IMG/VR virus record: IMGVR_UViG_3300031555_002578
DNA length: 64,000 bases
Origin: a virus
Lineage: Duplodnaviria; Caudoviricetes
Reading direction: 5' to 3' (one strand)
The notes under the pieces were generated by a model. It was given only the letters and a program-made list of their open reading frames with translations, had not been told where the DNA came from and made no database searches. The position numbers and the translations under genes are program-made. Shown piece by piece: positions 606 through 28,576 of the stretch. How positions within the stretch are numbered: the first letter of the stretch is position 1; each line of letters begins with the position of its first letter.

Positions 606-621
606 TTATATAGTATTTTAT

Positions 622-1307: not shown

Positions 1308-1312
1308 AAGAG

Positions 1313-1669: not shown

Positions 1670-1692
1670 ATTGAAAGAGAGGTTTTATTGGA

Positions 1693-2007: not shown

Positions 2008-2065
2008 TCCCCTCCCCATTTTTGTGGAGAGGTTTTTTATTTTGCAGAAAGGAGGAATGATACCA

Positions 2066-2791: not shown

Positions 2792-2805
2792 GGTGAAAGA
2801 GGTCT

Positions 2806-3435
2806 ATGTTTACTATTGTAATGAATTCTGATAAATCATGTACAGTTACACATCCAGTAACACTTTTTGAAAAAGAAACAGGAATTGATTGTATTCGTTG
2901 GCTTGTTCCACCTCAATATACAGAAGGACAAACTATTAAAAATATTGCAGAATATGTTGCTACAGTAAAAATTAAGTGTCCAGATGGTAGATACTGGATT
3001 GAATTACTAACTTGTGAAGAACTTCCTTATAAGGGAAAACTTGATTTTAGACAAGTAGTAACAAGTGATTTAACTAAAGTTTCAGGTCAAGTAATGATGC
3101 ATTTAACTTTTGCTAAAGTAATTGAAAATGAAGACGGTACAAAAGTACCTGATATTTTCTACAGTGATAATGTATTTATTACTATTGAAAGAAAAGAAGA
3201 ATTTATCTTTATTCCAGATAAATCTTTACAAGCAATTGACCAATATATTTTACAACTCAATGACAAAATGAATCAACTGAATAGTATGGTTGATGAAGTT
3301 TCTGAACAAAGAGCAAATGATATTGAAATTATTGACGGTCAAATTTTTGTTGGGTATAAGAATGAAGAAACTGGCGAATTTACCCCTATGGGTGATAGTA
3401 TTTCTGCAACATCTCACTCTTGGCAAGAAATGTAA
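2806..3435 (+). CDS. baseplate/tail-fibre attachment protein (BppU-N-like)
   Basis: Beta-rich N-domain then coiled coil; ends SWQEM; first gene of the fibre cluster. Confidence 0.5.
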   Translation: MFTIVMNSDKSCTVTHPVTLFEKETGIDCIRWLVPPQYTEGQTIKNIAEYVATVKIKCPDGRYWIELLTCEELPYKGKLDFRQVVTSDLTKVSGQVMMHLTFAKVIENEDGTKVPDIFYSDNVFITIERKEEFIFIPDKSLQAIDQYILQLNDKMNQLNSMVDEVSEQRANDIEIIDGQIFVGYKNEETGEFTPMGDSISATSHSWQEM

Positions 3436-3462
3436 TTTTATAATATTTAGGAGGAATTTAAG

Positions 3463-4530: not shown

Positions 4531-4547
4531 TTAAATAATGTTTAATT

Positions 4548-4578
4548 AAACACCTGAAGATTGGGTGTTTTTTATTTT
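4548..4578 (+). terminator. intrinsic terminator / stabilising hairpin
   Basis: aaacacctga-aga-ttgggtgttt plus T tract. Confidence 0.65.
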
Positions 4579-4621
4579 ATAACTTTCTATTTATATATTT
4601 TTGAAAGGATGTTTTTAAATT

Positions 4622-6493
4622 ATGGCAAATGTAAAATTTAACAAAGGTCTATATGCAAATCTACCTGCTCAATCTACAGAAGGTGCTCTGTATTTTACAA
4701 CCGATGAATCTATTTATCTAGGTCTGGCTAATGGTCAGTATCATAGATTTGGTGATTTTATTGAAGTAGCAAGTGTAGAAGCACTACCTGCTGATGGTGC
4801 TCATGTGAAAGCACTATACTACTGCACACTGGAAAATGTACTGGCAAAATGGGATGGCTCTGCTTGGAAACAAATTAATCTGGATACAGATACAACTTAT
4901 GAAATGACAGCAGGTGCTACAGCAGGTTCTATTAAACTGATTGGTAAAAACAAAAAAGGTACACAGGTTTCTTCTGTTGAACTGCAAGTTGTAGATGTTG
5001 CAGGTCTAAACGAAGCAATTGCCGATGCTAAAAAGGCAGGTACAGATGCACAGGCTTATGCTGAAGCACTATCTGACAAAGTTGGTGAGGTTGAAAACGG
5101 CAAAACAGTTGTTGGTATGATTTCTGATAATGCTACAGAAATTGCAGACCTAGCAGCAATTGTTTCTGCTATGACAGGTGACGAAGAAGGTTCTGTAGGC
5201 TCTATTTCTGAAGCAATTAAAGCACAGATTGATGCTCTGGATGTAACAGATGAAGCAGTTGAAGGTCAATTCGTAGTTGCTGTTTCTGAAACAGACGGTA
5301 AAATTACTGTAACAAGAGCATCTCTGAAAGTATCTGACATTCCTGAAATTGGTCAGGATAAAGTAACAGGTCTGGTTGATGCTATTGCTGATGCTAAGAA
5401 AGCAGGTACAGACGCTAATAATGCTCTGGAAACTTATAAAGGCACAAATGATGTTGCAGTAAAAGAAGCAAAAGATGCCGCTGATGAAGCAAAAGCAACA
5501 GCAGATGCTAAAGTTGCTTCTGTAACAGCAGGTGACGCTTCTGTAACAGTTGCAGGTACATCTACAGAACCTACAGTAGCAGTTAAACTAGACCCTTCCG
5601 CAGATAATGCTATTAAACTGGGTGAAAATGGTCTGAAAGTTGAAATTGGTGCTGCACCTGAATATAGCATTGTAAAAGCTGCTGATTCTGGTGAATATGC
5701 TGCAATCTATAACCTGACAAAAGATGGTGTTAATGTAGGTGCTTCTATCAATATTCCTAAAGACCTAGTTGTAAAATCTGGTTCTGTTGTTGATGGTGAT
5801 ATCGTTCTGGTGCTGAATGATGAAGCAAATACAGAAATTGTAATTCCTGCTGATTCTCTAATTGAATATGTAACATCTGGCTCTGTTGCAGGTGACATGG
5901 TTGTAATCAATGTTGATGAATCTACACACAAAGTAACAGCAACAATTACAGATGGTACAATTGGTCTGGCTAAACTGACAACAGAAGTTCAGACAGCAAT
6001 TGGTAAAGCACATAGCCATGCTCATCTTGAAGTTCTGGAAGGTATTACAGCAGATAAAGTTTCTGCATGGGATGCTTCTGAACAGAACGCTAAAGACTAT
6101 GCTGATGGTCTGGATGAAGCAATGGATATTCGTGTAAAAGCAATTGAAGACGATTATCTGAAAGAAGCAGATATTGCTAATAAAGCAGATAAAGCAACAA
6201 CACTGGCAGGTTATGGTATCACAGATGCTATGACAGCAGATGCAATCGCACAAGCAATTGAAGATTCTGAATATGATGACACAGCACTGGTAGGTAGAGT
6301 TGATGCACTAGAAGCAATTGACCACGATGCTTATGTTGATGCAGATACACAAGTGCTAACAGATGCGAAAGCATATGCTGATGGTCTAGCAGGTAATTAT
6401 GATGCTTCTGGTTCTGCATCTACAGCAGAACAGAATGCTAAAGATTATGCTGATTCCGCAGTAGAAACAGCAATGACATGGGGCGAATTCTGA
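4622..6493 (+). CDS. long tail fibre protein
   Basis: N-terminal KFNKG...GALYFTTD, Ala-rich coiled-coil repeats (AIADAKKAGTDA twice, AKDYAD), TTLAGYGITDA motif; ends TWGEF; CTG/CAG-rich codons suggest high expression. Confidence 0.7.
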   Translation: MANVKFNKGLYANLPAQSTEGALYFTTDESIYLGLANGQYHRFGDFIEVASVEALPADGAHVKALYYCTLENVLAKWDGSAWKQINLDTDTTYEMTAGATAGSIKLIGKNKKGTQVSSVELQVVDVAGLNEAIADAKKAGTDAQAYAEALSDKVGEVENGKTVVGMISDNATEIADLAAIVSAMTGDEEGSVGSISEAIKAQIDALDVTDEAVEGQFVVAVSETDGKITVTRASLKVSDIPEIGQDKVTGLVDAIADAKKAGTDANNALETYKGTNDVAVKEAKDAADEAKATADAKVASVTAGDASVTVAGTSTEPTVAVKLDPSADNAIKLGENGLKVEIGAAPEYSIVKAADSGEYAAIYNLTKDGVNVGASINIPKDLVVKSGSVVDGDIVLVLNDEANTEIVIPADSLIEYVTSGSVAGDMVVINVDESTHKVTATITDGTIGLAKLTTEVQTAIGKAHSHAHLEVLEGITADKVSAWDASEQNAKDYADGLDEAMDIRVKAIEDDYLKEADIANKADKATTLAGYGITDAMTADAIAQAIEDSEYDDTALVGRVDALEAIDHDAYVDADTQVLTDAKAYADGLAGNYDASGSASTAEQNAKDYADSAVETAMTWGEF

Positions 6494-6525
6494 TTTAATG
6501 GACATTTAACTTATGTTTTGAACTT

Positions 6526-6557
6526 GGGTAGAGGTTAATTCCTCTACCCTATTTTTT
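6526..6557 (+). terminator. intrinsic terminator
   Basis: gggtagagg-ttaatt-cctctaccc plus tatttttt. Confidence 0.8.
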
Positions 6558-6601
6558 GTAACTCTTAGGACAGTAAGATACGCTAATGAGGTGAAAATAT
6601 T

Positions 6602-7111
6602 ATGGCTTTATTTAAACCTTTATTGGGTGATGAATCTCGTATTTCATTAGAAGTCACTCCTTTTCATGAAGGATATGTGTACTTTGTGAAGGAAGGTTTT
6701 CTATACTTTGATGTTAACCTTGGCACAGAAGAAACACCTAATAATCAGAGAATTAAATTAAAGGCAGACGCAGAAATTGCACAAAAATTAATTGAACTTA
6801 ACAAACTATCTGAAATGGCATTTTGGATTGGTACTAAAGAAGAATATGAAGTAATTGAAACTAAAGAAGATAACGTTTTATATATTGTTACTGATGATTT
6901 CCAAGATGTAACCTTTGAAGATAAATCTAATAAAGTTGCTGTTTTAGATGAAACATGTACTGATGAACAATATCCTTCCGCATTGGCTATTTATAATTTT
7001 GTTCAAAGTTGCATTGAAGAATATATTGCATCTACACCAACTATTACAAGTTCCACATCTGAGCCTACTTCTGAAGATGGTAAAGTTGGAGATATTTGGG
7101 TGGTGATTTAA
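6602..7111 (+). CDS. tail fibre adaptor protein
   Basis: N-terminal FKPLLG...GYVYF, FWIGTKEEYE...LYIVTD motif, YPSALA, C-terminal PT..DG..GDIW. Confidence 0.6.
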   Translation: MALFKPLLGDESRISLEVTPFHEGYVYFVKEGFLYFDVNLGTEETPNNQRIKLKADAEIAQKLIELNKLSEMAFWIGTKEEYEVIETKEDNVLYIVTDDFQDVTFEDKSNKVAVLDETCTDEQYPSALAIYNFVQSCIEEYIASTPTITSSTSEPTSEDGKVGDIWVVI

Positions 7112-7112
7112 T

Positions 7113-8975
7113 ATGAAGTTTAAATCAATAAGAACATATACTGAATTATCATATATTGAAGGGACAGGCACACAATTTATTGACACAGGCTTTAAACCTA
7201 ATCAAGATACTAGAATTGTTCTTGACATTGATATTAGTACACAATCTAGTTATCCTATGGCATTATTAGGTGGCAGAAACGGTGATACTTCTTCTAATGC
7301 ATCATTTGTGATTTTTATTATGACTGCTTCTCAGCTTAGAACAGACTACGGTTCTGCAACAGTTAATGCTGATATTTCTACAGTTGGTAGATTTTTAATT
7401 GATAAAAATAAAGCAATATGTACTATTAATGATACTGCTTATACGAACACCGCAGCTACATTTCAGTCTGATTATACTCTAGCATTATTAACAGAGAATG
7501 ACCCAAGTGGTTACGATACAAGAATTACTTCTGCTAAGATTTATTCCTGTCAAGTGTATGATAACGATGTATTAATTCGTAATTATGTTCCTGCAAAAGA
7601 TGATAATGATGTAGTTTGTTTATATGACAAAGTAAATCATGAATTTGTTTATAATGCAGGTACAGGTACATTTGTTGCGGGTGAAACCATCAAAGAAATT
7701 GGTTCTGAATTATGGGAAGATGCACAATATTATTTAACAAAAACAGATGATAATATATGGTCAACTCCTAAATCTGTTTACACTAAAGTTTCTGAAAATT
7801 TGACTGTTTTGGATTACATTGAATCAGATGGTGCTAGTTATATTGATACAGGTTTTATGCCAAATCAAGATACAAGAATGGTTATTGATTATGAAGTGTT
7901 AGATACTAATACAGCAGAAGCACATATTAGTTCTGCTAGAACATCTGGTAGTACCCCATTATGGACATTGTACTCTAACGCTTCTCTAAAATTGGGAACT
8001 CGTTATGGCACAAGTGCTGCACAAACACTCACATCTCCTACTGGTGCAGGTCGATATTTGTTTGATAAAAATAAAAATACATTAAGCATTGATGGCACAC
8101 AAGTATATGAAGTAGCATACGAAACATTTACTGTATCAAGTACATTAATTATTTTTGCTAGAAACGATGGTACTGTTATTAATAACTATGGCAAAGGCAG
8201 GTTGTATTCTTATAAATTATACGATAATAATGTTTTAATCCGTGATTATGTTCCTGTATTAGACAGTTCTGGTGTTGCATGTCTTTACGACAAAGTAACA
8301 AATGAACTTTTCTACAATCAAGGCACAGGTACATTTAGTTACGGATACAAAACTGAATTTGAGCCTGAAACTGAGTTGGCATTCATTGAATCCAGTGGCA
8401 CACAATACATTGACACTGGATTCATGCACAATCAAAATACCAGAGTTGTTATGGATACACAGGTTACAACACAGCCTAGTGACCATGCGTGGTTGTTTGA
8501 AGGCAGAATTGATAACAATTCTGCTGCAAAAGGGGTGTTTCTGTTAAATGGTAAAGCATGGAACGCTGACTATGTAGGCAATAGCGGAAGGGTTTCCATG
8601 ACAAACTATTCTATCGGTATAACAGATAGGTTGAAAGTTGACTACAACAAAAACACAATTACCGTCAATTCGGTCAATAATTTTACACACACTTGGACAG
8701 TAACAACATTCCAAAGTACTTGTAATCTGGTGTTACTGGCAGCGAACACTGGTGGTACAGTTAGTGGTTTTATATCTGCTAGAATCTACTCTTGTTGCAT
8801 TTATGATAACGATACTCTGGTCAGAGATTATATCCCTAAAACGGATTCTCAAGGTGTTCCTGCACTCTTTGATAAAGTGTCTGGTACATACTATTACAAC
8901 GCAGGTACAGGGATGTTTGGTGCTGTAGAAAAATCAAATATAATTCAACGTGAATATTGGAAACAAGTGGCTTAA
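7113..8975 (+). CDS. receptor-binding protein with three tandem LamG/ConA-like lectin-type repeats
   Basis: Three ~190-aa units, each YIE.xG.xxIDTG..xNQxTR...YS..xYDN..LxRxYxP...LxDKV...YNxGTGxF. Confidence 0.65.
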   Translation: MKFKSIRTYTELSYIEGTGTQFIDTGFKPNQDTRIVLDIDISTQSSYPMALLGGRNGDTSSNASFVIFIMTASQLRTDYGSATVNADISTVGRFLIDKNKAICTINDTAYTNTAATFQSDYTLALLTENDPSGYDTRITSAKIYSCQVYDNDVLIRNYVPAKDDNDVVCLYDKVNHEFVYNAGTGTFVAGETIKEIGSELWEDAQYYLTKTDDNIWSTPKSVYTKVSENLTVLDYIESDGASYIDTGFMPNQDTRMVIDYEVLDTNTAEAHISSARTSGSTPLWTLYSNASLKLGTRYGTSAAQTLTSPTGAGRYLFDKNKNTLSIDGTQVYEVAYETFTVSSTLIIFARNDGTVINNYGKGRLYSYKLYDNNVLIRDYVPVLDSSGVACLYDKVTNELFYNQGTGTFSYGYKTEFEPETELAFIESSGTQYIDTGFMHNQNTRVVMDTQVTTQPSDHAWLFEGRIDNNSAAKGVFLLNGKAWNADYVGNSGRVSMTNYSIGITDRLKVDYNKNTITVNSVNNFTHTWTVTTFQSTCNLVLLAANTGGTVSGFISARIYSCCIYDNDTLVRDYIPKTDSQGVPALFDKVSGTYYYNAGTGMFGAVEKSNIIQREYWKQVA

Positions 8976-8992
8976 TTGGAGGTGACTGAATA

Positions 8993-9364
8993 ATGGCAAT
9001 GTATTTAAATGGAGTTAACCTTTCTTTTGGGCAAAAAGGTGAATCTGGTAAAAGTGCTTACGCTTACGCACAAGAGCAAGGTTATTCTGGCACTGAAGCA
9101 GAGTTTGGAGAACAATTATCTAATGCTGTTGCAGTACAAATGTTATTTGGTAAATTTAATAATCAAGTAACTTGGAATGATGATGAAACTGTGTTCACTG
9201 AAACTTGGACATATAATAATGATAGTTATAAAAGAGTTTCAACTATTATTTCAGATACAGAAACAACTGTTCAACTTACCATTAATGATGTAAATGCAGG
9301 TCTTTGGACAATGGTAATTGACGAAACAAATAAGGTATATGTGACAACATATACTGCACAATAA
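8993..9364 (+). CDS. small tail-associated protein
   Basis: GxxGKSAYxxAxxxGYxGTEAEF motif common in phage fibre proteins. Confidence 0.5.
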   Translation: MAMYLNGVNLSFGQKGESGKSAYAYAQEQGYSGTEAEFGEQLSNAVAVQMLFGKFNNQVTWNDDETVFTETWTYNNDSYKRVSTIISDTETTVQLTINDVNAGLWTMVIDETNKVYVTTYTAQ

Positions 9365-9398
9365 AGTAAATTTAAAAATGTTTTTAAATGAATTTTAA

Positions 9399-9430
9399 GG
9401 GAAGTCATATTGATAGACTTCCCATTTTTT
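9399..9430 (+). terminator. terminator ending the late operon
   Basis: gggaagtc-atattgata-gacttccc plus atttttt. Confidence 0.8.
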
Positions 9431-9499
9431 ACGATTTTATATCAAGATATTCCCTTCTAAATTTTTCTAAAAATTTTTCAATTTTTTTCAAATTTTCTC

Positions 9500-9528
9500 T
9501 TGCATTATTTAAGATTATCAGTTATAAT
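9500..9528 (+). promoter_or_regulatory. sigmaA-type promoter
   Basis: TTGCAT-17 nt-TATAAT with an A/T-rich upstream element. Confidence 0.7.
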
Positions 9529-9532
9529 ATAG

Positions 9533-9790
9533 ATAAATCAAAGAGAACTTAAACACTTCCTTCAAACACCATAGAGAGTTCAATTTGATTTATAAGAAGG
9601 AGAATAAAAAAGGGCTTCTTATAAGGGTAACGAGATAAAAAGTAAGAAGCAAGAAAATGTACGATTGTATTATTCTTAACTTTCTTAATTGTAACACTTC
9701 CAAAACAACTTTATTTACAGTAAGGCAAAAAAATTTCAACTTCTAAAAAGGAAAACTAGCATCATACATCTGGTGCTAGTTTTTCTTTTA
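9533..9790 (+). ncRNA. candidate structured small RNA (~255 nt)
   Basis: Bounded by the sigmaA promoter and a terminator; consecutive hairpins; no RBS-led ORF. Confidence 0.5.
9752..9790 (+). terminator. terminator of the candidate sRNA
   Basis: aaaactagcatca-tacatc-tggtgctagtttt plus tctttt. Confidence 0.75.
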
Positions 9791-9793
9791 TAT

Positions 9794-9836
9794 AAAATAA
9801 TAAAAATAGAATAGCCCATCTTTGAACGATGGGCTA
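9794..9836 (-). terminator. terminator of the 9878-10117 gene
   Basis: tagcccatc/gatgggcta stem; the A-rich flank reads as a U tract on the - strand. Confidence 0.7.
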
Positions 9837-9877
9837 ACTCTACCGCTTGGAATTAGAAGTAATTTTTTGTGGTATAC

Positions 9878-10117
9878 TCATTCCATATTATCGATGATTT
9901 CTTTGGCTTTGTCAAGCGTGATATCTTTCTTTTGGATAGTTTCAACGAGTAAATTAATTTTTTCTTTTTGAAGTTCTTCCTCATATTCTTTCTTTTGTTT
10001 TCTTAAATTTGCAAGTGTTTCTTCACTCTGCTCAATAGAGATTTCTAATTCAGAAATCGCAGAATTGATGTTATAAATTTTTTGTTCTGTTGATAATTCT
10101 CTAGGTTTTCTTGCCAT
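9878..10117 (-). CDS. small coiled-coil protein, monocistronic, beside attP
   Basis: Strong RBS aggaggt; basic MARKPR N-terminus and heptad repeats; own terminator. Confidence 0.7.
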   Translation of the reverse strand: MARKPRELSTEQKIYNINSAISELEISIEQSEETLANLRKQKKEYEEELQKEKINLLVETIQKKDITLDKAKEIIDNME

Positions 10118-10636: not shown

Positions 10637-11809
10637 TTATTCAATCTGGCTAATACGTTCCATTTCGTTAATTGCTAAACTACCATTCCAGTGTGTATAA
10701 ATATCCATAGTAGTTGCAATTTTTGCATGTCCCATAATATACTGCAAAGAACTAGAACTAAGTCCCTTCTCTGCCATTCTAGTACAAAACGTATGTCTTA
10801 AACTGTGTGGGCTGAGATGAGGAATTTGTTCTTTGTGTTCTTTATTGTATCTGTTGATGGCAGAATTTAATTCATATCTAACCATAGAGTTAGTTACAAT
10901 TCTCCATTTCTTATTTGATGTTAGAAGAAACTTTGTATAACCATTAATGATAGGTTCTACTGTTGTATTCTTGCTCCTTCTTTCAATCAAATTAAGAAAA
11001 GAATCGTATGCTCTGTCGGTGATATAAATATCTCTAATGCTTGTGCCTGTCTTAGTGGAAGTGATTTGCCACATTTCAGATTTTTCATTATAATTCTTGC
11101 CTAGTTGGTGGTCAATGTGAATAACTCTATTCTTTAAATCAATGTTATCTAAAGTTAATCCACATAATTCCCCTATTCTTAAACCTGTTTCTAACAGTAT
11201 GATAATAACATCATAGAGCCAATCACTTTTAGATGTTTCCTTGATATATTTAAGGAATTTTGCTTCTTGTTCTTCTGTAAGAATGTTCTTATCAAGATTT
11301 TCATTTGGTAAGAAGTTCAAACTTATATTACAAGGATTTTTCCTAATCAAATCATCATCTACTGCGATTTGGATTGCTAGTTTTAAGATGTTAAGATAGG
11401 TTCTCAGACTACTTTTTTTGATGCCACTTTCGTTCATGCTTATCATTAACTGTTTAACATGGGACACTCTCACATCTTTTATTTTCATCTGAGATAAAGG
11501 ATATGTCTTTAATTTGTTGACATTATATACTTTCATAGCCCTAGTAGAATCTTTCCATTTAGGGTTACTCTTTAGATAGTTGTCAAGCAATTCAGACACA
11601 GTGATTTTACCACCAGATACAACGATACCATCCTCTAAATCTTTTTTAATTTTTTGTTCTTTTTGTCTTAGTTCTGCTAATGTTGGAGCGTATATGCACT
11701 GTCTTACACCAAAGATATCAGTGTATCTATACATATATCTCCCGTCTTTACGTTGGCTTTCGCCACTGTACAATACTCGTTTATTACTATCCTTACGCTT
11801 TTCAGCCAT
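10637..11809 (-). CDS. int: tyrosine integrase, Tn916 Int family
   Basis: N-terminal arm-binding domain MAEKRKD...GESQRKDGRY; catalytic TGLRIGE, HSLRHT, MGH, Y; RBS ggagg at 11816-11820. Confidence 0.92.
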   Translation of the reverse strand: MAEKRKDSNKRVLYSGESQRKDGRYMYRYTDIFGVRQCIYAPTLAELRQKEQKIKKDLEDGIVVSGGKITVSELLDNYLKSNPKWKDSTRAMKVYNVNKLKTYPLSQMKIKDVRVSHVKQLMISMNESGIKKSSLRTYLNILKLAIQIAVDDDLIRKNPCNISLNFLPNENLDKNILTEEQEAKFLKYIKETSKSDWLYDVIIILLETGLRIGELCGLTLDNIDLKNRVIHIDHQLGKNYNEKSEMWQITSTKTGTSIRDIYITDRAYDSFLNLIERRSKNTTVEPIINGYTKFLLTSNKKWRIVTNSMVRYELNSAINRYNKEHKEQIPHLSPHSLRHTFCTRMAEKGLSSSSLQYIMGHAKIATTMDIYTHWNGSLAINEMERISQIE

Positions 11810-11875
11810 TAAAACCCTCCTTTGCGAAGAATGGTTGCAAAAAGAGGTCATTTACTGTGCTTAATGGTCATGTCC

Positions 11876-13420: not shown

Positions 13421-14275
13421 TCACTGGGAATTTTCTTGCACTAAATATGCATCAAATGTGTTCTGCATTAAAGATAATCTTGTCCATAAACCACTGCTAC
13501 CAATTACAGGAGTACACCAGTTTGTTACTTCTTTTACAGAATTAACATCAACATCTCCAATCATTTTACCGTTGGAATCAAAGTCAAAACCAACATTAAT
13601 TACTGTAGTATATTCATTCTTAATGTAGTCTGAATTAATCATATTACCTTTACCAACAGCACTTACAATTAGGTCAGCAGATAAACAAATCTCTTTTAGA
13701 TTTTTAGTTTTAGAGTGGCATACTGTGACAGTACAATCTTTGTCAAGAAGCATATCAAACAGTGGTCTGCCAACTAATTCACTGCGTCCAACAATGACTG
13801 CATGTTTACCTTTAAACCAATTTTTACCTTTAGAATATGTTAGATAATTAACTACTCCTAAAGGAGTACAAGCATAATGTTCACTGTCATTTTTAAATCC
13901 ATCAACATCTTTTTCAGGTGGAATAAATTTGATTACATTATGGAAATTAGAATCAATATCAAGATTTGTTGGTTTCTGAATAATACAAGCGTGGTAATTT
14001 TTAATTTCTGCTTTTAAGAAATTAATCATTTCTTCACAGGTAATATTGACAGGAAATTTCATTAAAGTTGCTTCAATGCCTACCTCATTTGCATCGGAAA
14101 TTTTACCCTTTACATATCTGTTTGAAGCAGGATTATCTCCTACTTGAATGATTAAAAGTCTTGGTCTAACATGACCTTTTGCAATTTGTTCATCAATATT
14201 TCTCTTTAATCTTTCTTTGTTTTCTTTGATGTATTCTGCAATATGTTCTTTGGTACAAAATTCAAATTCACTCAT
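13421..14275 (-). CDS. folD: methylenetetrahydrofolate dehydrogenase/cyclohydrolase
   Basis: VGDNPASxxYVxxK, Q.P, KDVDG, CTP.G, GRSELVGRP, TVTVCHSKT, GDVD. Confidence 0.9.
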   Translation of the reverse strand: MSEFEFCTKEHIAEYIKENKERLKRNIDEQIAKGHVRPRLLIIQVGDNPASNRYVKGKISDANEVGIEATLMKFPVNITCEEMINFLKAEIKNYHACIIQKPTNLDIDSNFHNVIKFIPPEKDVDGFKNDSEHYACTPLGVVNYLTYSKGKNWFKGKHAVIVGRSELVGRPLFDMLLDKDCTVTVCHSKTKNLKEICLSADLIVSAVGKGNMINSDYIKNEYTTVINVGFDFDSNGKMIGDVDVNSVKEVTNWCTPVIGSSGLWTRLSLMQNTFDAYLVQENSQ

Positions 14276-15330: not shown

Positions 15331-16080
15331 TCACTTGATTGGTTCAATCATTGTATAACAAGGCATGGGCTGTAGTTTAAATAGATTCTTATTATGTTTT
15401 GCGTCAATCAATCCTTTTACATAAGGGTCATCAATTTCACCAGTACGGATATATCTATCTAATACTTCATATGTAAAACCAAGATTGTCTTCATCTGATT
15501 TTCCAGTTAAACCATCAGAAGGTGTTTTTTCAACTAACATTCTAGGAAGACCTAATGCATGTCCAATTTCTTTAACTTCTGTTTTAGTGAGATTGGATAA
15601 AGGACTAAAATCACCAACTGAATCTCCATATCTGGTACTATACCCTACCCAGTCTTCAGATAGATTACAGGTATTTGCAACTCTACCATTAACAGACTGT
15701 GAAATGGCATATAGTGTTGCCATTCTAATTCTAGGTGGAAGATTTACGGATGTTTGGAGTGAAGGAAACAGTCTATTTTTATTAGCCATTTCTGCAAGAA
15801 TAGCAGTTACAGATTCTTTGATGTTAACTACCATAGAATTAATTTGAAGATGTTGCACTAACATTTCTGCATAAGCAATATCTCCTTGTTCTCCATTTGG
15901 CATTAAAACACCAATTACTCTATCTTTGCCAAGTGCTTCAACACATAGAGAAGCAACAACTGAAGAATCAGTCCCACCACTAATGCCAATTACGGCTTTG
16001 CAATTTTTACCATTTTTATTGAAGAAATCCTGAATCCAATATATGATTTCGTTTTTTATTTTTTCAGCATTAAATTTCAT
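15331..16080 (-). CDS. nadE: NH3-dependent NAD+ synthetase
   Basis: GISGGTDS, N..PRIRM, TCNLSE..VGYSTRYGD, KTPSDGL, DEDNLG. Confidence 0.92.
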   Translation of the reverse strand: MKFNAEKIKNEIIYWIQDFFNKNGKNCKAVIGISGGTDSSVVASLCVEALGKDRVIGVLMPNGEQGDIAYAEMLVQHLQINSMVVNIKESVTAILAEMANKNRLFPSLQTSVNLPPRIRMATLYAISQSVNGRVANTCNLSEDWVGYSTRYGDSVGDFSPLSNLTKTEVKEIGHALGLPRMLVEKTPSDGLTGKSDEDNLGFTYEVLDRYIRTGEIDDPYVKGLIDAKHNKNLFKLQPMPCYTMIEPIK

Positions 16081-16562
16081 CCTTTATCAAACCTCCATAG
16101 TTCAACTTCAAAGTTTGTAAAAATTTCATCAATCATGTGATATACTTCGCCCCAGTTTGCTCCACCTCTAGCACAAGAGATTTTCCAAGGCATTGCAATT
16201 TTAGCATTGTGTAGCAATCCGTGTTCACACTCTAATACATTACGAATTGAGATAAAGCAAGATTTTAGTGCTTCTATAGAAGTATATTTTTTGCCATCAT
16301 AGCCATAATTATTTTGAGCAAATAAATTACAAATAAATTGTGTTTTATCTGAGTTTGTAGGAATTAGTTGAATAGTACCTAATAAATATTTTGTGCAATC
16401 TTTAAATTCGTCACACATTTTTTTATATTCTGTATATGCTTCTGGATATTTATTTTTTACTTGTAATGCTACTCCACTACCCATCTTCCCTTGACAATTA
16501 ACTTGATGACAGATAATTTTTGCATCGGAATTAAATAAATCCCCGTCAATAATTTTAATCAA
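16077..16562 (-). CDS. macrodomain ADP-ribose hydrolase (Poa1p/DarG-like)
   Basis: GDLF...HQVNCQGKMGSGVA, NLFAQ, AMP.KI.C..GG..W. Confidence 0.85.
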   Translation of the reverse strand: MIKIIDGDLFNSDAKIICHQVNCQGKMGSGVALQVKNKYPEAYTEYKKMCDEFKDCTKYLLGTIQLIPTNSDKTQFICNLFAQNNYGYDGKKYTSIEALKSCFISIRNVLECEHGLLHNAKIAMPWKISCARGGANWGEVYHMIDEIFTNFEVELWRFDKG

Positions 16563-17038
16563 TTTAATCCCTCCAAAAATTTTATAATTTCGTCTAGGCT
16601 ATAATCCATGTCCAAAATTTCAAATACTGAAAGTCCGCATTTGCGTAATTCTTCAATATTTTCTTCATATCTATCTTTTGCATTCATTAGTGCTTTGTAG
16701 TCTTTATCAAGACCAGTTTGGCTATATCTATCTTCAAGTTTTTTAATCCACTCATCTTTTAGTTCTATAGATGGATAAATAATAAATACATCTTCTTTAG
16801 ATTTTTTCAATTCATTTCTTACTACTTTATGAGAGGATGTGAAAACAATGTATCCTTGTTCAGATAAATGATTTGCAATATTGCAGTATGGAATATACCA
16901 ATTAGCATGTCTGGTCTTAAAATATGTTTCATTATCATAAGTATCATGAAACCAGAAATTACCACTTTCTAAATCAATACATTTGTTTTTACCTGCAAGA
17001 GTACTTTTGCCAATTCCTTGATAACCAATAATAATCAT
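16559..17038 (-). CDS. small P-loop kinase/ATPase
   Basis: GYQGIGKST, IDLES. Confidence 0.6.
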   Translation of the reverse strand: MIIIGYQGIGKSTLAGKNKCIDLESGNFWFHDTYDNETYFKTRHANWYIPYCNIANHLSEQGYIVFTSSHKVVRNELKKSKEDVFIIYPSIELKDEWIKKLEDRYSQTGLDKDYKALMNAKDRYEENIEELRKCGLSVFEILDMDYSLDEIIKFLEGLN

Positions 17039-18519
17039 TAGAAATTACCTCCATGTAGAATATTTCTGATTCCAAACAAAGATTGTTCTCTCAACATTGT
17101 GCTATTTCTAAAAATTGGCTGAAGAAGATTATCTTCTGGAATAGTGTCTTTTGTATATTCATCTTTATATTTTAGTTCGCCATTTTCTTCATATACATAA
17201 CATAAGCCTTTTTGTGATTTTTTAAAGTTATTACCTTTAACTTTATCTGTTTTAGGGTCTTTAAAAATAAAAATTTCTTTATCGTTTACAACACCATATG
17301 TACTTTTAATTGCTACAGAGAATGTATCACGAGTAATAGGTTTAAGAATGCCATCTTCTTCAATACAATTAAAACTAAAACTACCTGCACCAAATACAAT
17401 ACAGTTAGATGCATAACCTTTTTCCATTAAGATAGAATAGATTTTTTCTGCTCTGCTTTGTGTTACTCCATCCCCATATACACAACCAATGTGAGGGTCT
17501 AATACTTTATAGCCCTTAGAGTTAACACCATAAGGAAATAGTTCATAAAGTTTTTCAACTGTTTTTACAGCAATTTCTACAATATCACCACTGTCAGGGC
17601 GAATTAGTAATTTGCCATTATGATTCATAATTTCTTCTCTACACTGAGGAAGTAGATTTTCAATTAAATTAAATAAATCATATGTATCAGAAACCATACT
17701 AAAACTTGCATTAGGATAAATTTCTGTTAGTAATCTTTTAATCATAGTGATTTCATCACCATCTATAGTGTAATTAGATGCCATAACAGAATGTTCTGTA
17801 CTAATCGCATTTTTGGCAAAAGGTTCTGTTATGTTATCGCAGTTGTAATTATATTCAATGTATGGAATAGCAGGAATTGTTGCTGTACCAGAAAAAGAAG
17901 TCAACCAAGCAGAAGATGCTTTAATTGCTTCTTGCATACAACTCATACCTCTGAAACCAAAATCAGAAATTGCACTACTATGAGGAATATCATCATCTAC
18001 AGTTAAATCATAATATTTATCAACGATTTGTCTGTAACTATATCCTACGTTTGCATGAACACAAGGTTTCCAGATTTCACTACTCATAAGAGATTCAACC
18101 CATTGTACTAGCCAAGCAAAATCATCATGGGTATTTGTAATTGCAATACAAGGTACATGCATAGGAACTTTAGCACCTTCTGGCAATGCAGAAATTTCTA
18201 ATGGTAAATATCCAAGTCTATGTAATTTACGAATTTTTTCAATATCATAGTTTCCTTCACCAAGCATAGAATCAATTACTCTTTTGTATTCAGAGACAAC
18301 ATCTTCTTCTGCAAGATTAAAGAAATTTTCGTTAAAATAATTGATTAAATATGTTTTACAAAATGCCTGTAAACCAAATAGCACCATTTCATTTTGTGTA
18401 TTTAATCTACTCATTCTTGGTGTAAGATAAGATACAAGTTTTGTTGTGCCTACTGGATATTGTTCTGCATGACAGTGCTTATATCCATCGGCAAGAATTA
18501 AAGCCATAATATTATGCAT
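17038..18519 (-). CDS. NAMPT-fold phosphoribosyl/ADP-ribosyl transferase (Namat-like), probably nicotinate-preferring
   Basis: DGYK..H..QYP, DFGFRG, TEHSVM, VSDTYD, IRPDSGD, YGDG, FGAGS, KKSQKG; GTAT replaces GTDT. Confidence 0.88.
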   Translation of the reverse strand: MHNIMALILADGYKHCHAEQYPVGTTKLVSYLTPRMSRLNTQNEMVLFGLQAFCKTYLINYFNENFFNLAEEDVVSEYKRVIDSMLGEGNYDIEKIRKLHRLGYLPLEISALPEGAKVPMHVPCIAITNTHDDFAWLVQWVESLMSSEIWKPCVHANVGYSYRQIVDKYYDLTVDDDIPHSSAISDFGFRGMSCMQEAIKASSAWLTSFSGTATIPAIPYIEYNYNCDNITEPFAKNAISTEHSVMASNYTIDGDEITMIKRLLTEIYPNASFSMVSDTYDLFNLIENLLPQCREEIMNHNGKLLIRPDSGDIVEIAVKTVEKLYELFPYGVNSKGYKVLDPHIGCVYGDGVTQSRAEKIYSILMEKGYASNCIVFGAGSFSFNCIEEDGILKPITRDTFSVAIKSTYGVVNDKEIFIFKDPKTDKVKGNNFKKSQKGLCYVYEENGELKYKDEYTKDTIPEDNLLQPIFRNSTMLREQSLFGIRNILHGGNF

Positions 18520-19306
18520 AATTTAACACCTCGATTTTTTCATGTTCTTTAGTAAAGATGCTGTTTGTAGTGAATACTTTTTCAATTAATCCACTATTAA
18601 GCAAATCTCCTTCAAGAATTGTATTTTCACAATGAGAAATATAAAGATAAATATTGTTAGCACCAAGTTCTTTTAATTTTTTAGCACTGTGATAGAAAGT
18701 ACCACCTCTACTGCAAATGTCATCAACAATAAGAATATTTTTACCTTTAATATCTTCTTGGCTAATTACATCCAATCCTTTGATTTCTCCAGTTCCCCAA
18801 TCACGTTTTTTCATACCAAACGAATAAGGAATACCAAACATAGATGAGTAACGCTTCATTGCTCCTTCATCTGGATAAAACATCATATCTATATCGTCTA
18901 ATTTTTGTTCGATTAATGCATCTACAATATCTTTAGGAGTTTCTACTTTAATATTATTGATAAGTGCTTCACTCACATAAGAATGAGGGTCTAACACAGT
19001 AACCCAATTGAAATTTAAAGAATTAATAATTTGTGCGAAATATTTTAATGTAAATACATCTTCTAATGTTTTAACTCTGTCTTGACGAGCATTTGGAATA
19101 TAAGGCATTTTTAAATTAATATCTTTTACATTATGAGCGTGAAGATGTTCTACTAAAAATATTAGAGCCAAAAGTTCTTCGTTATTTTCAAACAACCATG
19201 TAATACTAACTCCATGATGATATACTGGAACAATATTTTTCTTAATTAAAAAAGTACCATCTGGAAATTTGTCAATTTTCACAGGATGGTTGTTAATTTT
19301 AATCAT
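18512..19306 (-). CDS. PRPP-synthetase-like pyrophosphokinase (Adps-like)
   Basis: FPDG, MPYIPNARQDR, DPHS, PDEGA, KKRD, VDDICSRGGTF. Confidence 0.88.
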   Translation of the reverse strand: MIKINNHPVKIDKFPDGTFLIKKNIVPVYHHGVSITWLFENNEELLALIFLVEHLHAHNVKDINLKMPYIPNARQDRVKTLEDVFTLKYFAQIINSLNFNWVTVLDPHSYVSEALINNIKVETPKDIVDALIEQKLDDIDMMFYPDEGAMKRYSSMFGIPYSFGMKKRDWGTGEIKGLDVISQEDIKGKNILIVDDICSRGGTFYHSAKKLKELGANNIYLYISHCENTILEGDLLNSGLIEKVFTTNSIFTKEHEKIEVLNYA

Positions 19307-19312
19307 ATATAA

Positions 19313-19846
19313 TCACTCTCCAATTACTTCAATCTGACAACACTTCATTACATTTAGAGCATTTTTATGATTTTCTGGTGTAGTACCTGCACAACAAGAA
19401 GCATCTACTTTAATTATGTATTCAGGGTAAAATGCCTTAATAAGCATTGCATTAGAAATTACACAAATATCTGTACAAAGACCAATAAGTTCAATTTCAT
19501 AATTAGATGTAGGGTCTGCAACATAATCAATGGCACTTGCAATATCTTTTGCCCCAAAAGTTTCTTTAGTTACAAATGTAAATCTTTTATCTCCAATAGC
19601 ATCAAATACATCTTTATTAATTTCCCAACCTTTACTCATTTTGATGCAATGTGTTACAGGAAGTTTTTTACCTTCTTGTGTTTTAAGATAATTTTCTTCA
19701 TGTGTATCTAAAGTACAAATAATATGTCCATCAAATTCTTCAATTTTCTTAATTACATTAGGAATAATATCAATGGCTTCTGGAGAACCCAGAGAGCCAT
19801 CAATAAAGTCATTTTGCATATCTACAACAATAAGGATTTTGTTCAT
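19313..19846 (-). CDS. pncA: nicotinamidase (isochorismatase family)
   Basis: VVDMQNDF, DTH, HC, K.TFG, GLCTDICV. Confidence 0.85.
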   Translation of the reverse strand: MNKILIVVDMQNDFIDGSLGSPEAIDIIPNVIKKIEEFDGHIICTLDTHEENYLKTQEGKKLPVTHCIKMSKGWEINKDVFDAIGDKRFTFVTKETFGAKDIASAIDYVADPTSNYEIELIGLCTDICVISNAMLIKAFYPEYIIKVDASCCAGTTPENHKNALNVMKCCQIEVIGE

Positions 19847-20539: not shown

Positions 20540-21292
20540 TTATGCTAATTGAATAATATCATTATAGATAAATCTAACTTTACCTTTATCTTTATCATAA
20601 TGAAAGTGACCAGAATAAATTTTTTCACAATCTATAATTTCTTCAACTTTATTTAAAAAGTTCTCTGTGCTTCTATCTACTGTTGATTGGTCAATATTAG
20701 GCAAGAATACTTCTGTTGGTTCATATTTTAAAGGTGTTGTATGAAATACTGCATAGTCAAATTCGTGTTCAATTTCTTTGTGAACACTATAATCCCAACT
20801 ATTTCTGTCATGTTTAAGCATTAACAAATATAAATCCATATCTGCTTCAATAATTTGCTCTGATTTAAACCATTTATATCCCATCATTTGTCTATAGTGT
20901 TTATCAACAGAATAAGCACCGCCAATAAACAAAAAACGCTTATTATTAAGTGATACAATACGAAAATCATCTAAAAATAGCAAATTGGGGAATTCTGGTT
21001 CTGCCCATGCAATAATATTGTTACTTCCTACTTTATAAGTGTCATGAATATATCCTTTACAATTCCACGCACGTTCTTCATGGTTGCCATGTAGTATCAC
21101 TAAAGTGATAGGAAGTTTAGATAATTTCTTTTTAACTTTTTTATCACTAGAATCAAGATAATAATTAATTCCTGCATCTCCTGCAACAATCATGATATCG
21201 TCTGTTGTTGTTTCATTATTTTCACAAAAGTCAAATATTTTATCAAACCAACGATGACAGTCTCCAGTAATATATATTTTACTTTTTCTCAT
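20540..21292 (-). CDS. calcineurin-like metallophosphoesterase
   Basis: GDCH, GDAG, GNHE, GGA.S.D, H, GHFH. Confidence 0.85.
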   Translation of the reverse strand: MRKSKIYITGDCHRWFDKIFDFCENNETTTDDIMIVAGDAGINYYLDSSDKKVKKKLSKLPITLVILHGNHEERAWNCKGYIHDTYKVGSNNIIAWAEPEFPNLLFLDDFRIVSLNNKRFLFIGGAYSVDKHYRQMMGYKWFKSEQIIEADMDLYLLMLKHDRNSWDYSVHKEIEHEFDYAVFHTTPLKYEPTEVFLPNIDQSTVDRSTENFLNKVEEIIDCEKIYSGHFHYDKDKGKVRFIYNDIIQLA

Positions 21293-22598
21293 TAATTTCT
21301 CCCATTAAATATGCTTCTTCAATATAATCTCTGTTATCATAAATTGGATTTGTATGCCATTCCCAAGGAATTTCAACACATACCATACCTCTTTCATTGA
21401 TTTGATTTTTATATTTATAATCGTCTTTTAATTTAAGTTTTTGTTTAAAAACAGAATAATCAACATAATGATGCCATCTATTAAATTTCCAAACGACTTT
21501 TGCAACGTCTGGATGCATTTCTTCTAGCATCTTAGATTTAGGTAACGTACCTTCTTCTGCGTAAAATTCTTCTGTGTTGCCACCCTTTTTGGCTTGAGTA
21601 GTTCTTTTTTCACATAAAAATAGATTAAATTGTACTGTACACCATCCATCTTTTAATGCTCTTAGGCTTAAATCAGTATCTTCGTTATATCTTCCTCTCC
21701 ATCTATATGGAATATCATTTCTAATAAATAAACATGAATAAATTCTTGTATTTAAAACAAATGCAGGTCTATCACTGCCACTCGTACAGAATTTAGAATA
21801 ATTTAATCCAGAAATTGCTATATTTTCATATCTTTCAACAAAGTCTTCTAGTGTTTTAAATGCTTGTCCAGAGAATACTCTATATCGTTTACCGTCTTTA
21901 TATCTTTCAAAACCTTCTAAATTATCATCCATTACCCAATGATATTTAAATCCATTTTTAATACTATGCTCCCAACAAAAGTTTCTAACTGCTCCTGCTC
22001 CAACTGAACCAACTTTTCCTGTGTCATTAAAACAATCGTAATTTTCTTTATAAGATAAATCCATTTTTATAATTGTTGTGTATTTTGAAGTAAACTCTTT
22101 TGAGTATTCTTCATATTCTTGAGGTTCTACAACCAGATAATGATTAATACTCATCTCAGCCAATCTATTTGATGTATGTGATTTGCCAAGCCAACTTCGT
22201 CCTTTGCTAATTACATAGATTGGATATTGTGGATTATCTCCTAATATGTATCTTAAATTTCTATGTTCTCCATGAATCAATTTTGGATACCATATGCTTT
22301 TTGTTTTGTCTGTAATTTTTTGTTCAAATATTTCACTCAATTCTTCTGATGATTTATCTGTCCAGAATTCAATACATGCATATTGATAATCTTTATTACG
22401 TTCTCTAAAGTATGGCATATCATCCCAGTGATATTCCCAATAACTTTTAGGATATATTTTTTCGGTTACTTTTTTATTTTTTATATCTTTTGTCTCTAAA
22501 TAGCATTTAGTTGTATTATCATATAAAGTAATTCCAATTTTTTTACCTAATATGTCTAAATCTTCTTGATTTCTAAATCTACAAATAATTTTTCTCAT
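21279..22598 (-). CDS. GREB1/TET-associated-type (TAGT) glycosyltransferase with N-terminal accessory repeats
   Basis: YPIYVISKGR, VEPQE, RNF.W, WVMDDN, RIYSC, YNEDTDLS, KGGNT. Confidence 0.75.
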   Translation of the reverse strand: MRKIICRFRNQEDLDILGKKIGITLYDNTTKCYLETKDIKNKKVTEKIYPKSYWEYHWDDMPYFRERNKDYQYACIEFWTDKSSEELSEIFEQKITDKTKSIWYPKLIHGEHRNLRYILGDNPQYPIYVISKGRSWLGKSHTSNRLAEMSINHYLVVEPQEYEEYSKEFTSKYTTIIKMDLSYKENYDCFNDTGKVGSVGAGAVRNFCWEHSIKNGFKYHWVMDDNLEGFERYKDGKRYRVFSGQAFKTLEDFVERYENIAISGLNYSKFCTSGSDRPAFVLNTRIYSCLFIRNDIPYRWRGRYNEDTDLSLRALKDGWCTVQFNLFLCEKRTTQAKKGGNTEEFYAEEGTLPKSKMLEEMHPDVAKVVWKFNRWHHYVDYSVFKQKLKLKDDYKYKNQINERGMVCVEIPWEWHTNPIYDNRDYIEEAYLMGEINEKK

Positions 22599-25772: not shown

Positions 25773-26315
25773 TTATTCTTCAAAAAGAACAATGGAATTA
25801 TAATATAGTGTTTTTTGAACATCAATTAGTCTTTGATTTGAAGAACCTCTAAATGCAAGAGTAATATCTCTCTGTTGATGAACATACTGACCGTCCACGA
25901 CAACATCAATATATTTCAGAATGCCATTTCTTAAATCTCTTACAATATTAACATCACTTGTAATTACAGAACCTCTTGGAATCCAAATATCTTCAAAATC
26001 ATATCCTGTATAAAGCCAAATTGTTTTATCTGGATAATTTGTCTTAATAATATCACACAGTTGGTATACATCAAATAAATTTTCTGGATGTAAAGGGTCA
26101 CCGCCACTAAAAGTAACACCATAAATATAAGGTAATTCTAATTGTTCAAGAATTGTATCAATTGTATCTTGAGTAATTTTTTCTCCTTTTGAACAATCCC
26201 AAGATTGTGCATTATGGCAACCTTCACAATGATGTTCACAACCAGAACACCAGATTACAAGGCGAAAACCTTTACCATCTGCAACACTGCATGTTGTCAT
26301 ATCTAACAGTTTCAT
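25773..26315 (-). CDS. nrdG: anaerobic ribonucleotide reductase activase
   Basis: CxxxCxxC radical-SAM motif, SGGDPL, VDG, RGSSNQR. Confidence 0.93.
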   Translation of the reverse strand: MKLLDMTTCSVADGKGFRLVIWCSGCEHHCEGCHNAQSWDCSKGEKITQDTIDTILEQLELPYIYGVTFSGGDPLHPENLFDVYQLCDIIKTNYPDKTIWLYTGYDFEDIWIPRGSVITSDVNIVRDLRNGILKYIDVVVDGQYVHQQRDITLAFRGSSNQRLIDVQKTLYYNSIVLFEE

Positions 26316-28576
26316 TGTACAGACACCCCACTATGTTTTTCTCTCATTTCAACTTCTTTTTGTTTACCATAGTTAAATGCAGTTGTATAATTACCTGTTA
26401 AATATCCTGTTACTCTACGCAATCTTTGAATATTTTTACTACCACATACAGGACAGGTATCATTAATTTCATCACAGAAACCACAATCCATGCATGTGTC
26501 ATTAGGAACATTAATTGCAAAATAAGGGATATCTGCATCCATAGCATAATTTACAAGTGTTTCTAGTGCTTCAATATTATGTTTTACAGAAGATTCAAGT
26601 TCTACATATGTAATACAACCTGCACTAGAATAGCCTGTTAATTGAGATTCAATATCAATTTTTTCAAATGGTGTTAGTTTATGCCATACTGGAACATGCA
26701 TAGAATTTGTGAAATAATCATTTTCAGAAACATTAGGAATTACACCATATTTTTCTTTAAATTTTTTCATTGCTGTATGACACAGATTTTCAGCAGGAGT
26801 ATAATAAACACCAAAATTTAATTTATATTCTTGTTTAAATTCTGCACATCTATCTTTAAATAATTGTTCAATACGTTTTGCTAATTCCATACCTTTTTCT
26901 TCTGTATGGTCACAGCCAATTAAAATTTGAAGTGTTTCTGCAAGACCTAATTGACCAATAACAATTGTGCCATGTTTTAATGCACTTCTAATACCTTCTT
27001 CTGGAACGTAACCTGCCATTAAGTTATTTTCATACATAAATTTTGCAGATTTAGGGTCTTGGCTACAAATCCATTCAAAGCGTTCAATTAACATATCTTT
27101 GGCTTCATGAATTTTCTGGTCAAGAAGTTTCATAAATGCTTCTACAATATTTTCATCATATTCGTGAACAAATTCTTCTTTTGCCATCATAGCCAGTGTT
27201 GGCATAATAATTGTTACAGGACAGATGTTACCTCTACCATCTTTTAACTGACCAAAACCATTAATATCCCAACCATTTGCAGTTCTACAACCCATCGTAC
27301 TAAAATATGTTCTGGGGTCATTAATATCATATCCTGCATTGCCAGACCAATCCACATTTGCATAATTTGGATACAATCTTTGTGCTGTAGATTTTAATGC
27401 AAGTTGATATAAGTCATAGTTGGGGTCTTCTGGATATCTGTTTACACCTTTCATGCACTGGAAAATACCACAAGGGAATACAGATGTTTTATGTAGTTTA
27501 CCAATACCTTCAATAGAAACTTCAAGCAGTGCTTTTGTTACCATTCTACCTTCTGGTAATGTACAAGTACCGTAATTGGTGGATGTGAATGGCAACTGAT
27601 TCCCAGACCTTGATTGAAGTGTATTTAGATTATGGTAAAGACCTTCAACTGCCTGATATGTTTCTTTAATAGTCATATCCATAGCATATTCCCATGCTTC
27701 TGGATGAAGTTCTTTAAATTCTTCATCTTCAAAATGTACAGTTCCATCTTTATGTAAATCATTTTCTATCCATTTATAAAAACGTTGAAGTTTGTATTCA
27801 GACTTTCCTTCACAATATTTCATTCCATCATGAAGATGTTTTGTAAAACTTTTTCTTACATAAGGAATCATTGTCCAATCAATATGTGTTGCTGATACAC
27901 CACCGAATTGTTGCAGAGATTGTAATTGGAAAATTACAGCCACTAATTGAAATGCTGTATTAATAGAATTTGCAGGTCTTACATCTGTTTGTCTTGTATT
28001 AAATCCTTTCGCAAGTAAATCATCAAATGGTATTGACAGGCAATTATGCATACCAATAGCATATGCGTCTAGGTCATGAATATAAATCATATTGCCTAAA
28101 TGATTATCTCTAGCCATTTTAGACATACAATGATTTAATGCAAACTGTTTCATTACAACAGAGTTTGCTTCACCCATTCTTCCCCCAAAAGAGTGTTCGT
28201 CAACATTTGCATTTTGATTCTGGACATTACTTGCCATCAATTTTTCTTTAATGGCTTTCATAAAATCTTCATATTGAGAACGAGCCATTGTTCTAAGGTA
28301 TCTATATTTTACATATGCTCTTGCAACATCTTTTCTATTACTAGCCATTAACTTTTCTTCTACAATATCTTGAATTTGTTCTACTGACATATCTTGCCCT
28401 AGATTTTCAACATGATTAGCAATATCTCTTGCTTTTTCTTTAGAATAAGGAGTTTCTTCGCCATCCACATCAGTAAATGCCTTTAAAACTGCTATTTTGA
28501 TTTTCTCTTTATCAAATTGGACTTTTTGCCCATTTCTTTTAATTACATTCAAAATAGTGTCTCCTTTCACTATCAT
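26312..28576 (-). CDS. nrdD: class III ribonucleoside-triphosphate reductase with ATP cone
   Basis: VIKRNG ATP cone, IHDLD, MGCRT, TPAE, CxxC-CxxC, RRVTGYL glycyl-radical motif. Confidence 0.95.
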   Translation of the reverse strand: MIVKGDTILNVIKRNGQKVQFDKEKIKIAVLKAFTDVDGEETPYSKEKARDIANHVENLGQDMSVEQIQDIVEEKLMASNRKDVARAYVKYRYLRTMARSQYEDFMKAIKEKLMASNVQNQNANVDEHSFGGRMGEANSVVMKQFALNHCMSKMARDNHLGNMIYIHDLDAYAIGMHNCLSIPFDDLLAKGFNTRQTDVRPANSINTAFQLVAVIFQLQSLQQFGGVSATHIDWTMIPYVRKSFTKHLHDGMKYCEGKSEYKLQRFYKWIENDLHKDGTVHFEDEEFKELHPEAWEYAMDMTIKETYQAVEGLYHNLNTLQSRSGNQLPFTSTNYGTCTLPEGRMVTKALLEVSIEGIGKLHKTSVFPCGIFQCMKGVNRYPEDPNYDLYQLALKSTAQRLYPNYANVDWSGNAGYDINDPRTYFSTMGCRTANGWDINGFGQLKDGRGNICPVTIIMPTLAMMAKEEFVHEYDENIVEAFMKLLDQKIHEAKDMLIERFEWICSQDPKSAKFMYENNLMAGYVPEEGIRSALKHGTIVIGQLGLAETLQILIGCDHTEEKGMELAKRIEQLFKDRCAEFKQEYKLNFGVYYTPAENLCHTAMKKFKEKYGVIPNVSENDYFTNSMHVPVWHKLTPFEKIDIESQLTGYSSAGCITYVELESSVKHNIEALETLVNYAMDADIPYFAINVPNDTCMDCGFCDEINDTCPVCGSKNIQRLRRVTGYLTGNYTTAFNYGKQKEVEMREKHSGVSVQ

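Follow-up and report, generated by a model that had tools for sequence, protein, structure and literature searches.

A gut phage operon that may rebuild NAD+ through deamido-NAD, as a nicotinate-type version of NARP1-AP

In the NAD+ reconstitution pathway 1 (NARP1), Adps and Namat rebuild nicotinamide adenine dinucleotide (NAD+) from ADP-ribose (ADPR) and nicotinamide (bioRxiv 10.1101/2024.02.11.579819). Some NARP1 operons add Adpp, a Poa1p-like macro-domain phosphatase that converts ADPR-1''-phosphate to ADPR (bioRxiv 10.64898/2026.01.28.702374). Here we describe an operon of a gut phage, located in a 64,000-nucleotide stretch of DNA (hereafter the window) which is part of the 64.8-kb IMG/VR virus record IMGVR_UViG_3300031555_002578, with a completeness estimate of about 40%. 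We propose, with a probability of roughly 0.6, that this operon is a nicotinate-type version of NARP1-AP (Adps-Adpp-Namat), in which NAD+ would be rebuilt via deamido-NAD (NaAD).

The operon comprises six open reading frames (ORFs) arranged head to tail on the minus strand from 19846 to 15331, and every gap or overlap between them is 8 nt or less, with the Prs-like gene overlapping the adjacent transferase gene by 8 nt. In their order of reading, the genes and the codon discussed below are:

19313..19846, minus strand: PncA-type nicotinamidase, 177 aa (Pfam Isochorismatase, E 2e-22)
18512..19306, minus strand: Adps-like Prs homologue, 264 aa, putative ADP-ribose pyrophosphokinase (phrog_619, ribose-phosphate pyrophosphokinase, E 4e-73; three Prs-type domains)
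17038..18519, minus strand: Namat-like transferase, 493 aa, with a remodelled base pocket, putative nicotinate ADP-ribose transferase (NAPRTase and NAMPT_N; phrog_448, nicotinamide phosphoribosyltransferase, E 6e-152)
17881..17883, minus strand: codon of Ala213 in the transferase, at the nicotinamide-selecting Asp position (alignment to Namat)
16559..17038, minus strand: small P-loop NTPase, 159 aa (N-terminal Walker A GYQGIGKST; no Pfam family; phrog_4182, annotated as unknown function)
16077..16562, minus strand: macro-domain protein, 161 aa, probable Adpp-like ADPR-1''-phosphate phosphatase (Pfam Macro; phrog_335, 'phosphatase', E 3e-42)
15331..16080, minus strand: short NH3-type NAD synthetase NadE, 249 aa (Pfam NAD_synthase, E 2e-55; PHROGs NAD synthetase)

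The proposed route would be triggered when a host NADase splits NAD+ into ADPR (or ADPR-1''-phosphate) and nicotinamide. The macro-domain enzyme would convert ADPR-1''-phosphate to ADPR, and the Adps-like enzyme would use ATP to turn ADPR into ADPR-pyrophosphate (ADPR-PP). PncA would cleave nicotinamide into nicotinate and ammonia, the Namat-like transferase would join nicotinate and ADPR-PP directly to give NaAD, and the NH3-dependent NadE would finally convert NaAD to NAD+. The substrate specificities of all these enzymes, and the step from nicotinate and ADPR-PP to NaAD above all, are predicted from sequence.

Compared with NARP1 (SPbetaL1, Bas63, ICP1 and Paenibacillus foliorum; PMC12774641, PMC13586617), the window likewise contains an adjacent Prs-like and Nampt-like pair with shared catalytic residues, and both genes fall inside their respective clades. 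Unlike in NARP1, PncA and NadE are obligatory partners in the module of the window, and the predicted product of the transferase is therefore NaAD, not NAD+. With NARP1-AP (Vibrio phage Gary; bioRxiv 10.64898/2026.01.28.702374) the operon shares a Poa1p-like macro domain inside the operon, in a layout as in Vibrio phage K408, although in the window the macro gene follows the transferase, a macro gene occurs in only 46 of 75 viral relatives, and its activity is predicted. As in the Preiss-Handler pathway (PncA, PncB, NadD and NadE), PncA is the entry point of the module and NadE, which acts on NaAD, its last enzyme, whereas the window lacks a PncB-type enzyme and NadD; its only phosphoribosyltransferase is Namat-like, and the Adps-like enzyme and this transferase would replace the middle steps. 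NARP2 (Nampt and Nmnat; phages phiN3 and KVP40) is likewise a phage NAD module that includes an enzyme of the Nampt fold, but the window has no adenylyltransferase and the NARP2-type Nampts are an outgroup with 24-28% identity. Our literature search returned no paper in which PncA, NadE or nicotinate is connected to Namat or ADPR-PP and none describing the module, and the reaction of nicotinate with ADPR-PP to NaAD was in no paper found.

The transferase had its best match in both sequence and fold in the SPbetaL1 Namat (9w5x/9w5w; E 2e-115, template modelling score 0.92), with which it shares 42% identity. In Namat, Asp215 is hydrogen-bonded to nicotinamide, Ala242 lines the same pocket, and the D215A mutation lowers NAD+ output 8-fold (PMC12774641). 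When the two proteins were aligned, Ala213 in the SFSGTATIPA motif of the window, which the original prediction had pointed out, was placed on Asp215 in FTGTDTIPA of SPbetaL1 Namat (9w5x), and two further changes were observed, from Ala242 to Ser240 and from His187 to Ser185. The Namat catalytic core of Asp13, Tyr15, Phe189, Arg192, His245, Arg306 and Asp308 is present in the window and invariant in 137 members of its clade. Human NAMPT mutants of Asp219 are comparable in that the same position was changed to a small uncharged residue, but they are laboratory mutants of an enzyme that uses phosphoribosyl pyrophosphate (PRPP). The D219S mutant is reportedly able to accept nicotinate. Asp219 itself determines which substrate human NAMPT takes (Khan et al. 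2006, cited in PMC7096376).

About 200 related loci were gathered from IMG/VR, GenBank phages and GTDB genomes. Among 193 full-length transferases from this set, the residue at the Asp215 position is Ser (74 enzymes), Ala (63), Asp (36) or Glu (20). The second pocket residue follows the same division exactly, since the Ala242 position is Ser in 137/137 Ser/Ala-type enzymes and Ala in 56/56 Asp/Glu-type enzymes. The His187 position also distinguishes the two groups, while the catalytic residues are invariant in both. Enzymes with Glu in place of the nicotinamide-binding Asp (GSET or GSES) were found in crAss-like phages and Lak-C1 (L083, L099-L117 and L084), where an Adps-like gene is linked to them and PncA or NadE never is. 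In Clostridium tagluense (L199), the Namat-like open frame spans 580 aa and is matched by Pfam in two separate parts, which suggests a large insertion within the enzyme.

Gene linkage was counted where a locus had 2.5 kb or more of sequence on both sides. In the viral Ser/Ala loci, PncA, the Adps-like gene and NadE each accompany the transferase in 75/75 cases and the macro gene in 46/75. The Ser/Ala loci of bacterial genomes contain PncA in 39/40, NadE in 35/40 and the macro gene in 3/40, so that PncA and NadE reach 114/115 and 110/115 when viral and genome loci are combined. Neither PncA nor NadE was found in the Asp/Glu-type loci (0/49 for both).

The Ser/Ala transferases form a single clade with a Shimodaira-Hasegawa-like approximate likelihood ratio test (SH-aLRT) support of 100. 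When rooted on NARP2-type Nampts, the tree places this clade within the Adps-linked Namat radiation. The basal members of the clade come from Clostridium grantii, C. tagluense and relatives, and the gut phage phAss-1. Repeated independent switches from Asp to Ser or Ala, which would have given the linkage statistical strength, were looked for, and the trees need one change only. The sole candidate for a second origin, phAss-1, is a long branch at the base of the same clade with a support of 87, and the trees point to one origin of the switch, at most two.

The phAss-1 locus (OQ749652.1:96860-101298) encodes a nicotinamidase, a Prs-like protein, a Namat-like transferase with Ala, Ser242 and an intact clamp, a 139-aa ORF and NadE. 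This phage is a published, TAG-recoded gut phage, and the phAss-1 paper does not discuss its nicotinamidase, Prs-like, Namat-like and NadE genes. On the chromosome of Lonepinella koalarum, a homologue of the Asp type that lacks a Prs-like neighbour falls among the Adps-linked Namats in the tree. This enzyme may be a NadV-type Nampt that descends from these Namats or is ancestral to them.

Adps is known as a Prs-like enzyme without the C-terminal α11-12 module, with Lys185 as a catalytic residue (PMC13586617). The 264-aa protein of the window stops before the C-terminal segment of E. coli Prs in the alignment, lacking the α11-12 module as well, and is 43% identical to P. foliorum Adps (pfAdps) versus 22% to E. 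coli Prs. Its TIGR01251 score was 111 bits, against a cut-off of 113, whereas the true Prs of five host genomes scored 368-410. The Namat-linked paralogues scored 91-110, the validated pfAdps being at 91. Adps residues were mapped via the ICP1 gene, as the structures of PMC13586617 were not matched by sequence among solved structures; Lys185, Arg87, His121, Asp161, Asp212 and Asp213 of ICP1 correspond to K166, R74, H108, D146, D195 and D196 in the window. The ICP1-type pyrophosphate (PP) loop CDGAAS is not found in the window, where DDICSRGGTF (CSRGGT) resembles DDLCSYGGTF (CSYGGT) of pfAdps. Because the validated pfAdps also has the CSYGGT form, the ICP1 PP-loop motif is not general to the Adps family. 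With nine true Prs as its root, the tree unites all Namat-linked paralogues in one Adps clade (SH-aLRT 99), with ICP1 Adps near its base and pfAdps inside a 34-row clade together with the window and all Ser/Ala-linked genes. The Adps-like genes of three Ser/Ala modules (L065, L140 and L162) group with the P. foliorum type, apart from the remaining Ser/Ala-linked genes, which shows that modules have exchanged their kinase gene.

The preference of Namat for ADPR-PP is given by an adenine clamp consisting of Arg40 and the motif GS-X-φ-X-φ-X-φ-TRD (PMC12774641). Basal members of the Ser/Ala clade keep this clamp as GSYTYQYNTRD or GAYTYQYVTRD, together with Ala, Ser242 and PncA. In the derived subclade that includes the window, an insertion of 9-10 residues follows the clamp helix and Tyr396 is replaced by Cys or Ala. 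The window clamp differs from that of NARP1, reading GSFSFNC, 9-10 inserted residues and TRD, with Phe at position 3 and Cys at position 7, while R38, the equivalent of Arg40, is kept. In the AlphaFold2 model of the window transferase (predicted local distance difference test score, pLDDT, 93.5), the insertion is a β-hairpin of residues 385-394.

The best solved relative of PncA was P. horikoshii PncA (1ILW/1IM5, E 8e-13), and in the alignment both the triad (Asp-Lys-Cys) and the metal site (Asp-x-His...His) are intact; across 130 module-linked homologues, all six positions show no or almost no variation. NadE scored 186 bits with TIGR00552 against a cut-off of 64. It has no glutaminase domain within its 249 aa, and its SGGxDS loop does not vary among 125 module-linked homologues. 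Solved relatives of the macro protein include ADP-ribose 1''-phosphate phosphatase (6lfq-6lfu, E 6e-10), and the macro gene that Vibrio phage K408 carries between Adps and Namat shares 37% identity with it; the window protein is probably an Adpp-like ADPR-1''-phosphate phosphatase.

The P-loop gene is inserted between the transferase and macro genes in the window phage only. No homologue of the 159-aa protein was present in any of the about 200 related loci, and no solved relative or family assignment was obtained. An AAA_28 lead (Atlas) was weak and unproven, with a score of 0.89; AAA_28 is the family to which the ribosylnicotinamide kinase domain of NadR belongs. The six genes listed in the original prediction are all contiguous, but its term 'kinase' for this protein is a plausible guess only.

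For an adenylyltransferase, we looked for PF01467 (CTP_transf_like; NadD/NadM/NadR-type). None was found in the 64.8-kb record of the window, which is about 40% complete, extending the earlier statement that NadD and NadM are missing, nor in four relatives that are 94-100% complete. The only CTP_transf_like gene in any relative was a single match of 30 bits in a 187-aa frame, 35 kb from the cluster in a 235-kb relative (L136, the record of L001). Apparent adenylyltransferases beside the module were also considered, but tblastn with a bifunctional NMNAT-Nudix query had matched the Nudix half only and the genes are NrtR regulators; one weak N-terminal match to this query was seen in L143.

An NrtR gene (Nudix and NrtR winged helix) lies beside the module in 34/40 genome loci, and none lies at the window. 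Many of the genome loci are chromosomal, not phage. On a 384-kb contig (L191), the order is NrtR, PncA, Adps-like, Namat(Ala) and NadE, where the regulator (Nudix and NrtR_WHD; 7816-8655) is directly upstream of the operon, as in 33 other genome loci, and the module is flanked by DegV, histidine kinases, a GGDEF protein and an AraC regulator. The caveat of the original prediction, that similar clusters exist in clostridial chromosomes, was therefore well placed. Gut Clostridia have this gene set as a chromosomal operon under NrtR regulation, and the phage copy therefore represents a shared or captured lineage-specific pathway and not a phage invention. Isolate genomes with the module also have a true Prs and a long glutamine-type NadE, and three of four have a separate PncB-sized protein of the NAPRTase family, so the module does not make up for salvage genes that these hosts lack.

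The gene identities, pocket switch, linkage and phylogeny are observed, and they have to be weighed against other possible chemistries and several points that count against the route through NaAD. Considering that the clamp of the window subclade is altered by the change of Tyr396 to Cys and the inserted hairpin, the use of ADPR-PP is less secure there than in the basal group. Ser or Ala at the Asp215 position could broaden specificity without switching it. Since the switch lies on a single branch, or perhaps two, its co-occurrence with PncA and NadE is one event retained over deep divergence and not repeated convergence. The outgroup did not take in the archaeal class III Prs, among which the Prs-like protein has its best solved relatives. 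To our knowledge, NadD is present in every host. This last point and the altered clamp favour classical Preiss-Handler salvage, in which the Prs-like enzyme would make PRPP, the transferase would make nicotinate mononucleotide, host NadD would convert it to NaAD and the phage NadE would act last. Namat also uses PRPP in vitro (PMC12774641), a further point against the NaAD route that suits such salvage, as does the Prs-like score lying just below the Prs cut-off. However, the Prs-like gene is nested among validated Adps, far from true Prs, and the hosts already possess true Prs and mostly a PncB-like enzyme. With no role for an ADPR-1''-phosphate phosphatase-like macro domain, and with the adenine clamp intact in basal clade members, this salvage seems unlikely.

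Alternatively, the transferase could still take nicotinamide or both bases and make NAD+ directly as in NARP1, with PncA and NadE as a parallel salvage pair. The Ser or Ala may merely relax specificity, and the D215A Namat retains residual nicotinamide activity, its 8-fold drop not being a loss. In that case, PncA would destroy the substrate of the enzyme itself. The loss of Asp together with A242S is fixed in all 137 members, and PncA and NadE never accompany the Asp/Glu-type enzymes, which makes this reading quite improbable in our view. Another explanation bears on the role in biology and would fit the same chemistry, namely that the operon is ordinary host NAD-homeostasis cargo without a role in counter-defence, copied from the chromosomal NrtR-regulated operon. 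While the NrtR linkage of the chromosomal set, its position between housekeeping genes in L191 and the integrase of the window phage agree with such cargo, the set is kept in at least 75 viral contigs including near-complete phages of 150-235 kb, and the Adpp-like macro domain has been added in many viral loci and is near absent from chromosomal copies. We regard it as very unlikely. The deamidating NARP1 variant put forward in the original prediction gains support from the pocket switch, the PncA/NadE linkage and the placement in the Adps and Namat clades, and further from the macro domain of Adpp type and from complete relatives that lack an adenylyltransferase. Its additional suggestion that NaAD may escape cleavage by defence NADases finds no support in these data.

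The rest of the window encodes an integrase, a DNA polymerase, a helicase, a ligase and NrdD, and thus belongs to a large phage. No match to the cluster was found among GenBank phages by megablast, and a promoter and terminator scan gave fewer matches than in shuffled sequence. Just upstream of the operon, a TET-associated glycosyltransferase (PF20691, E 1e-41; 21279-22598, minus strand) adjoins a calcineurin-like phosphoesterase (20540-21292, minus strand), and this pair suggests glycosylated hydroxymethyl-pyrimidine DNA in this phage. A 730-aa fusion of polynucleotide kinase, phosphoesterase and RNA ligase families (60538-62730, minus strand; phrog_8238, E 6e-228) looks like a Pnkp/RNA-ligase tRNA-repair enzyme and is likely a further counter-defence gene. 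The tyrosine integrase (10637-11851, minus strand; phrog_1, E 2e-70) is located at the point where coding strand and GC skew switch, positions 1-10000 having the opposite coding strand and a higher G+C content (0.33-0.36). A FolD-like tetrahydrofolate dehydrogenase/cyclohydrolase (13421-14275, minus strand) and the anaerobic ribonucleotide reductase NrdD (26312-28576, minus strand) fit an anaerobic host.

Taken all together, we consider it somewhat more probable than the opposite that the Ser/Ala clade has a new nicotinate ADP-ribose transferase activity and provides a fourth, deamidated, route to NAD+ reconstitution, which would serve as NrtR-controlled housekeeping recycling in gut Clostridia and, in phages, as counter-defence against NAD+-depleting immunity. 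If this is true, the direct formation of NaAD from ADP-ribose pyrophosphate and nicotinate would be a new reaction of NAD metabolism, and a two-residue rule (Asp215 and Ala242) would separate nicotinamide-type from nicotinate-type Namats. The annotation of hundreds of genes as 'Prs + nicotinate phosphoribosyltransferase' would be corrected, and ADP-ribose recycling would extend beyond phage counter-defence to a regulated pathway on the chromosomes of abundant gut Clostridia.

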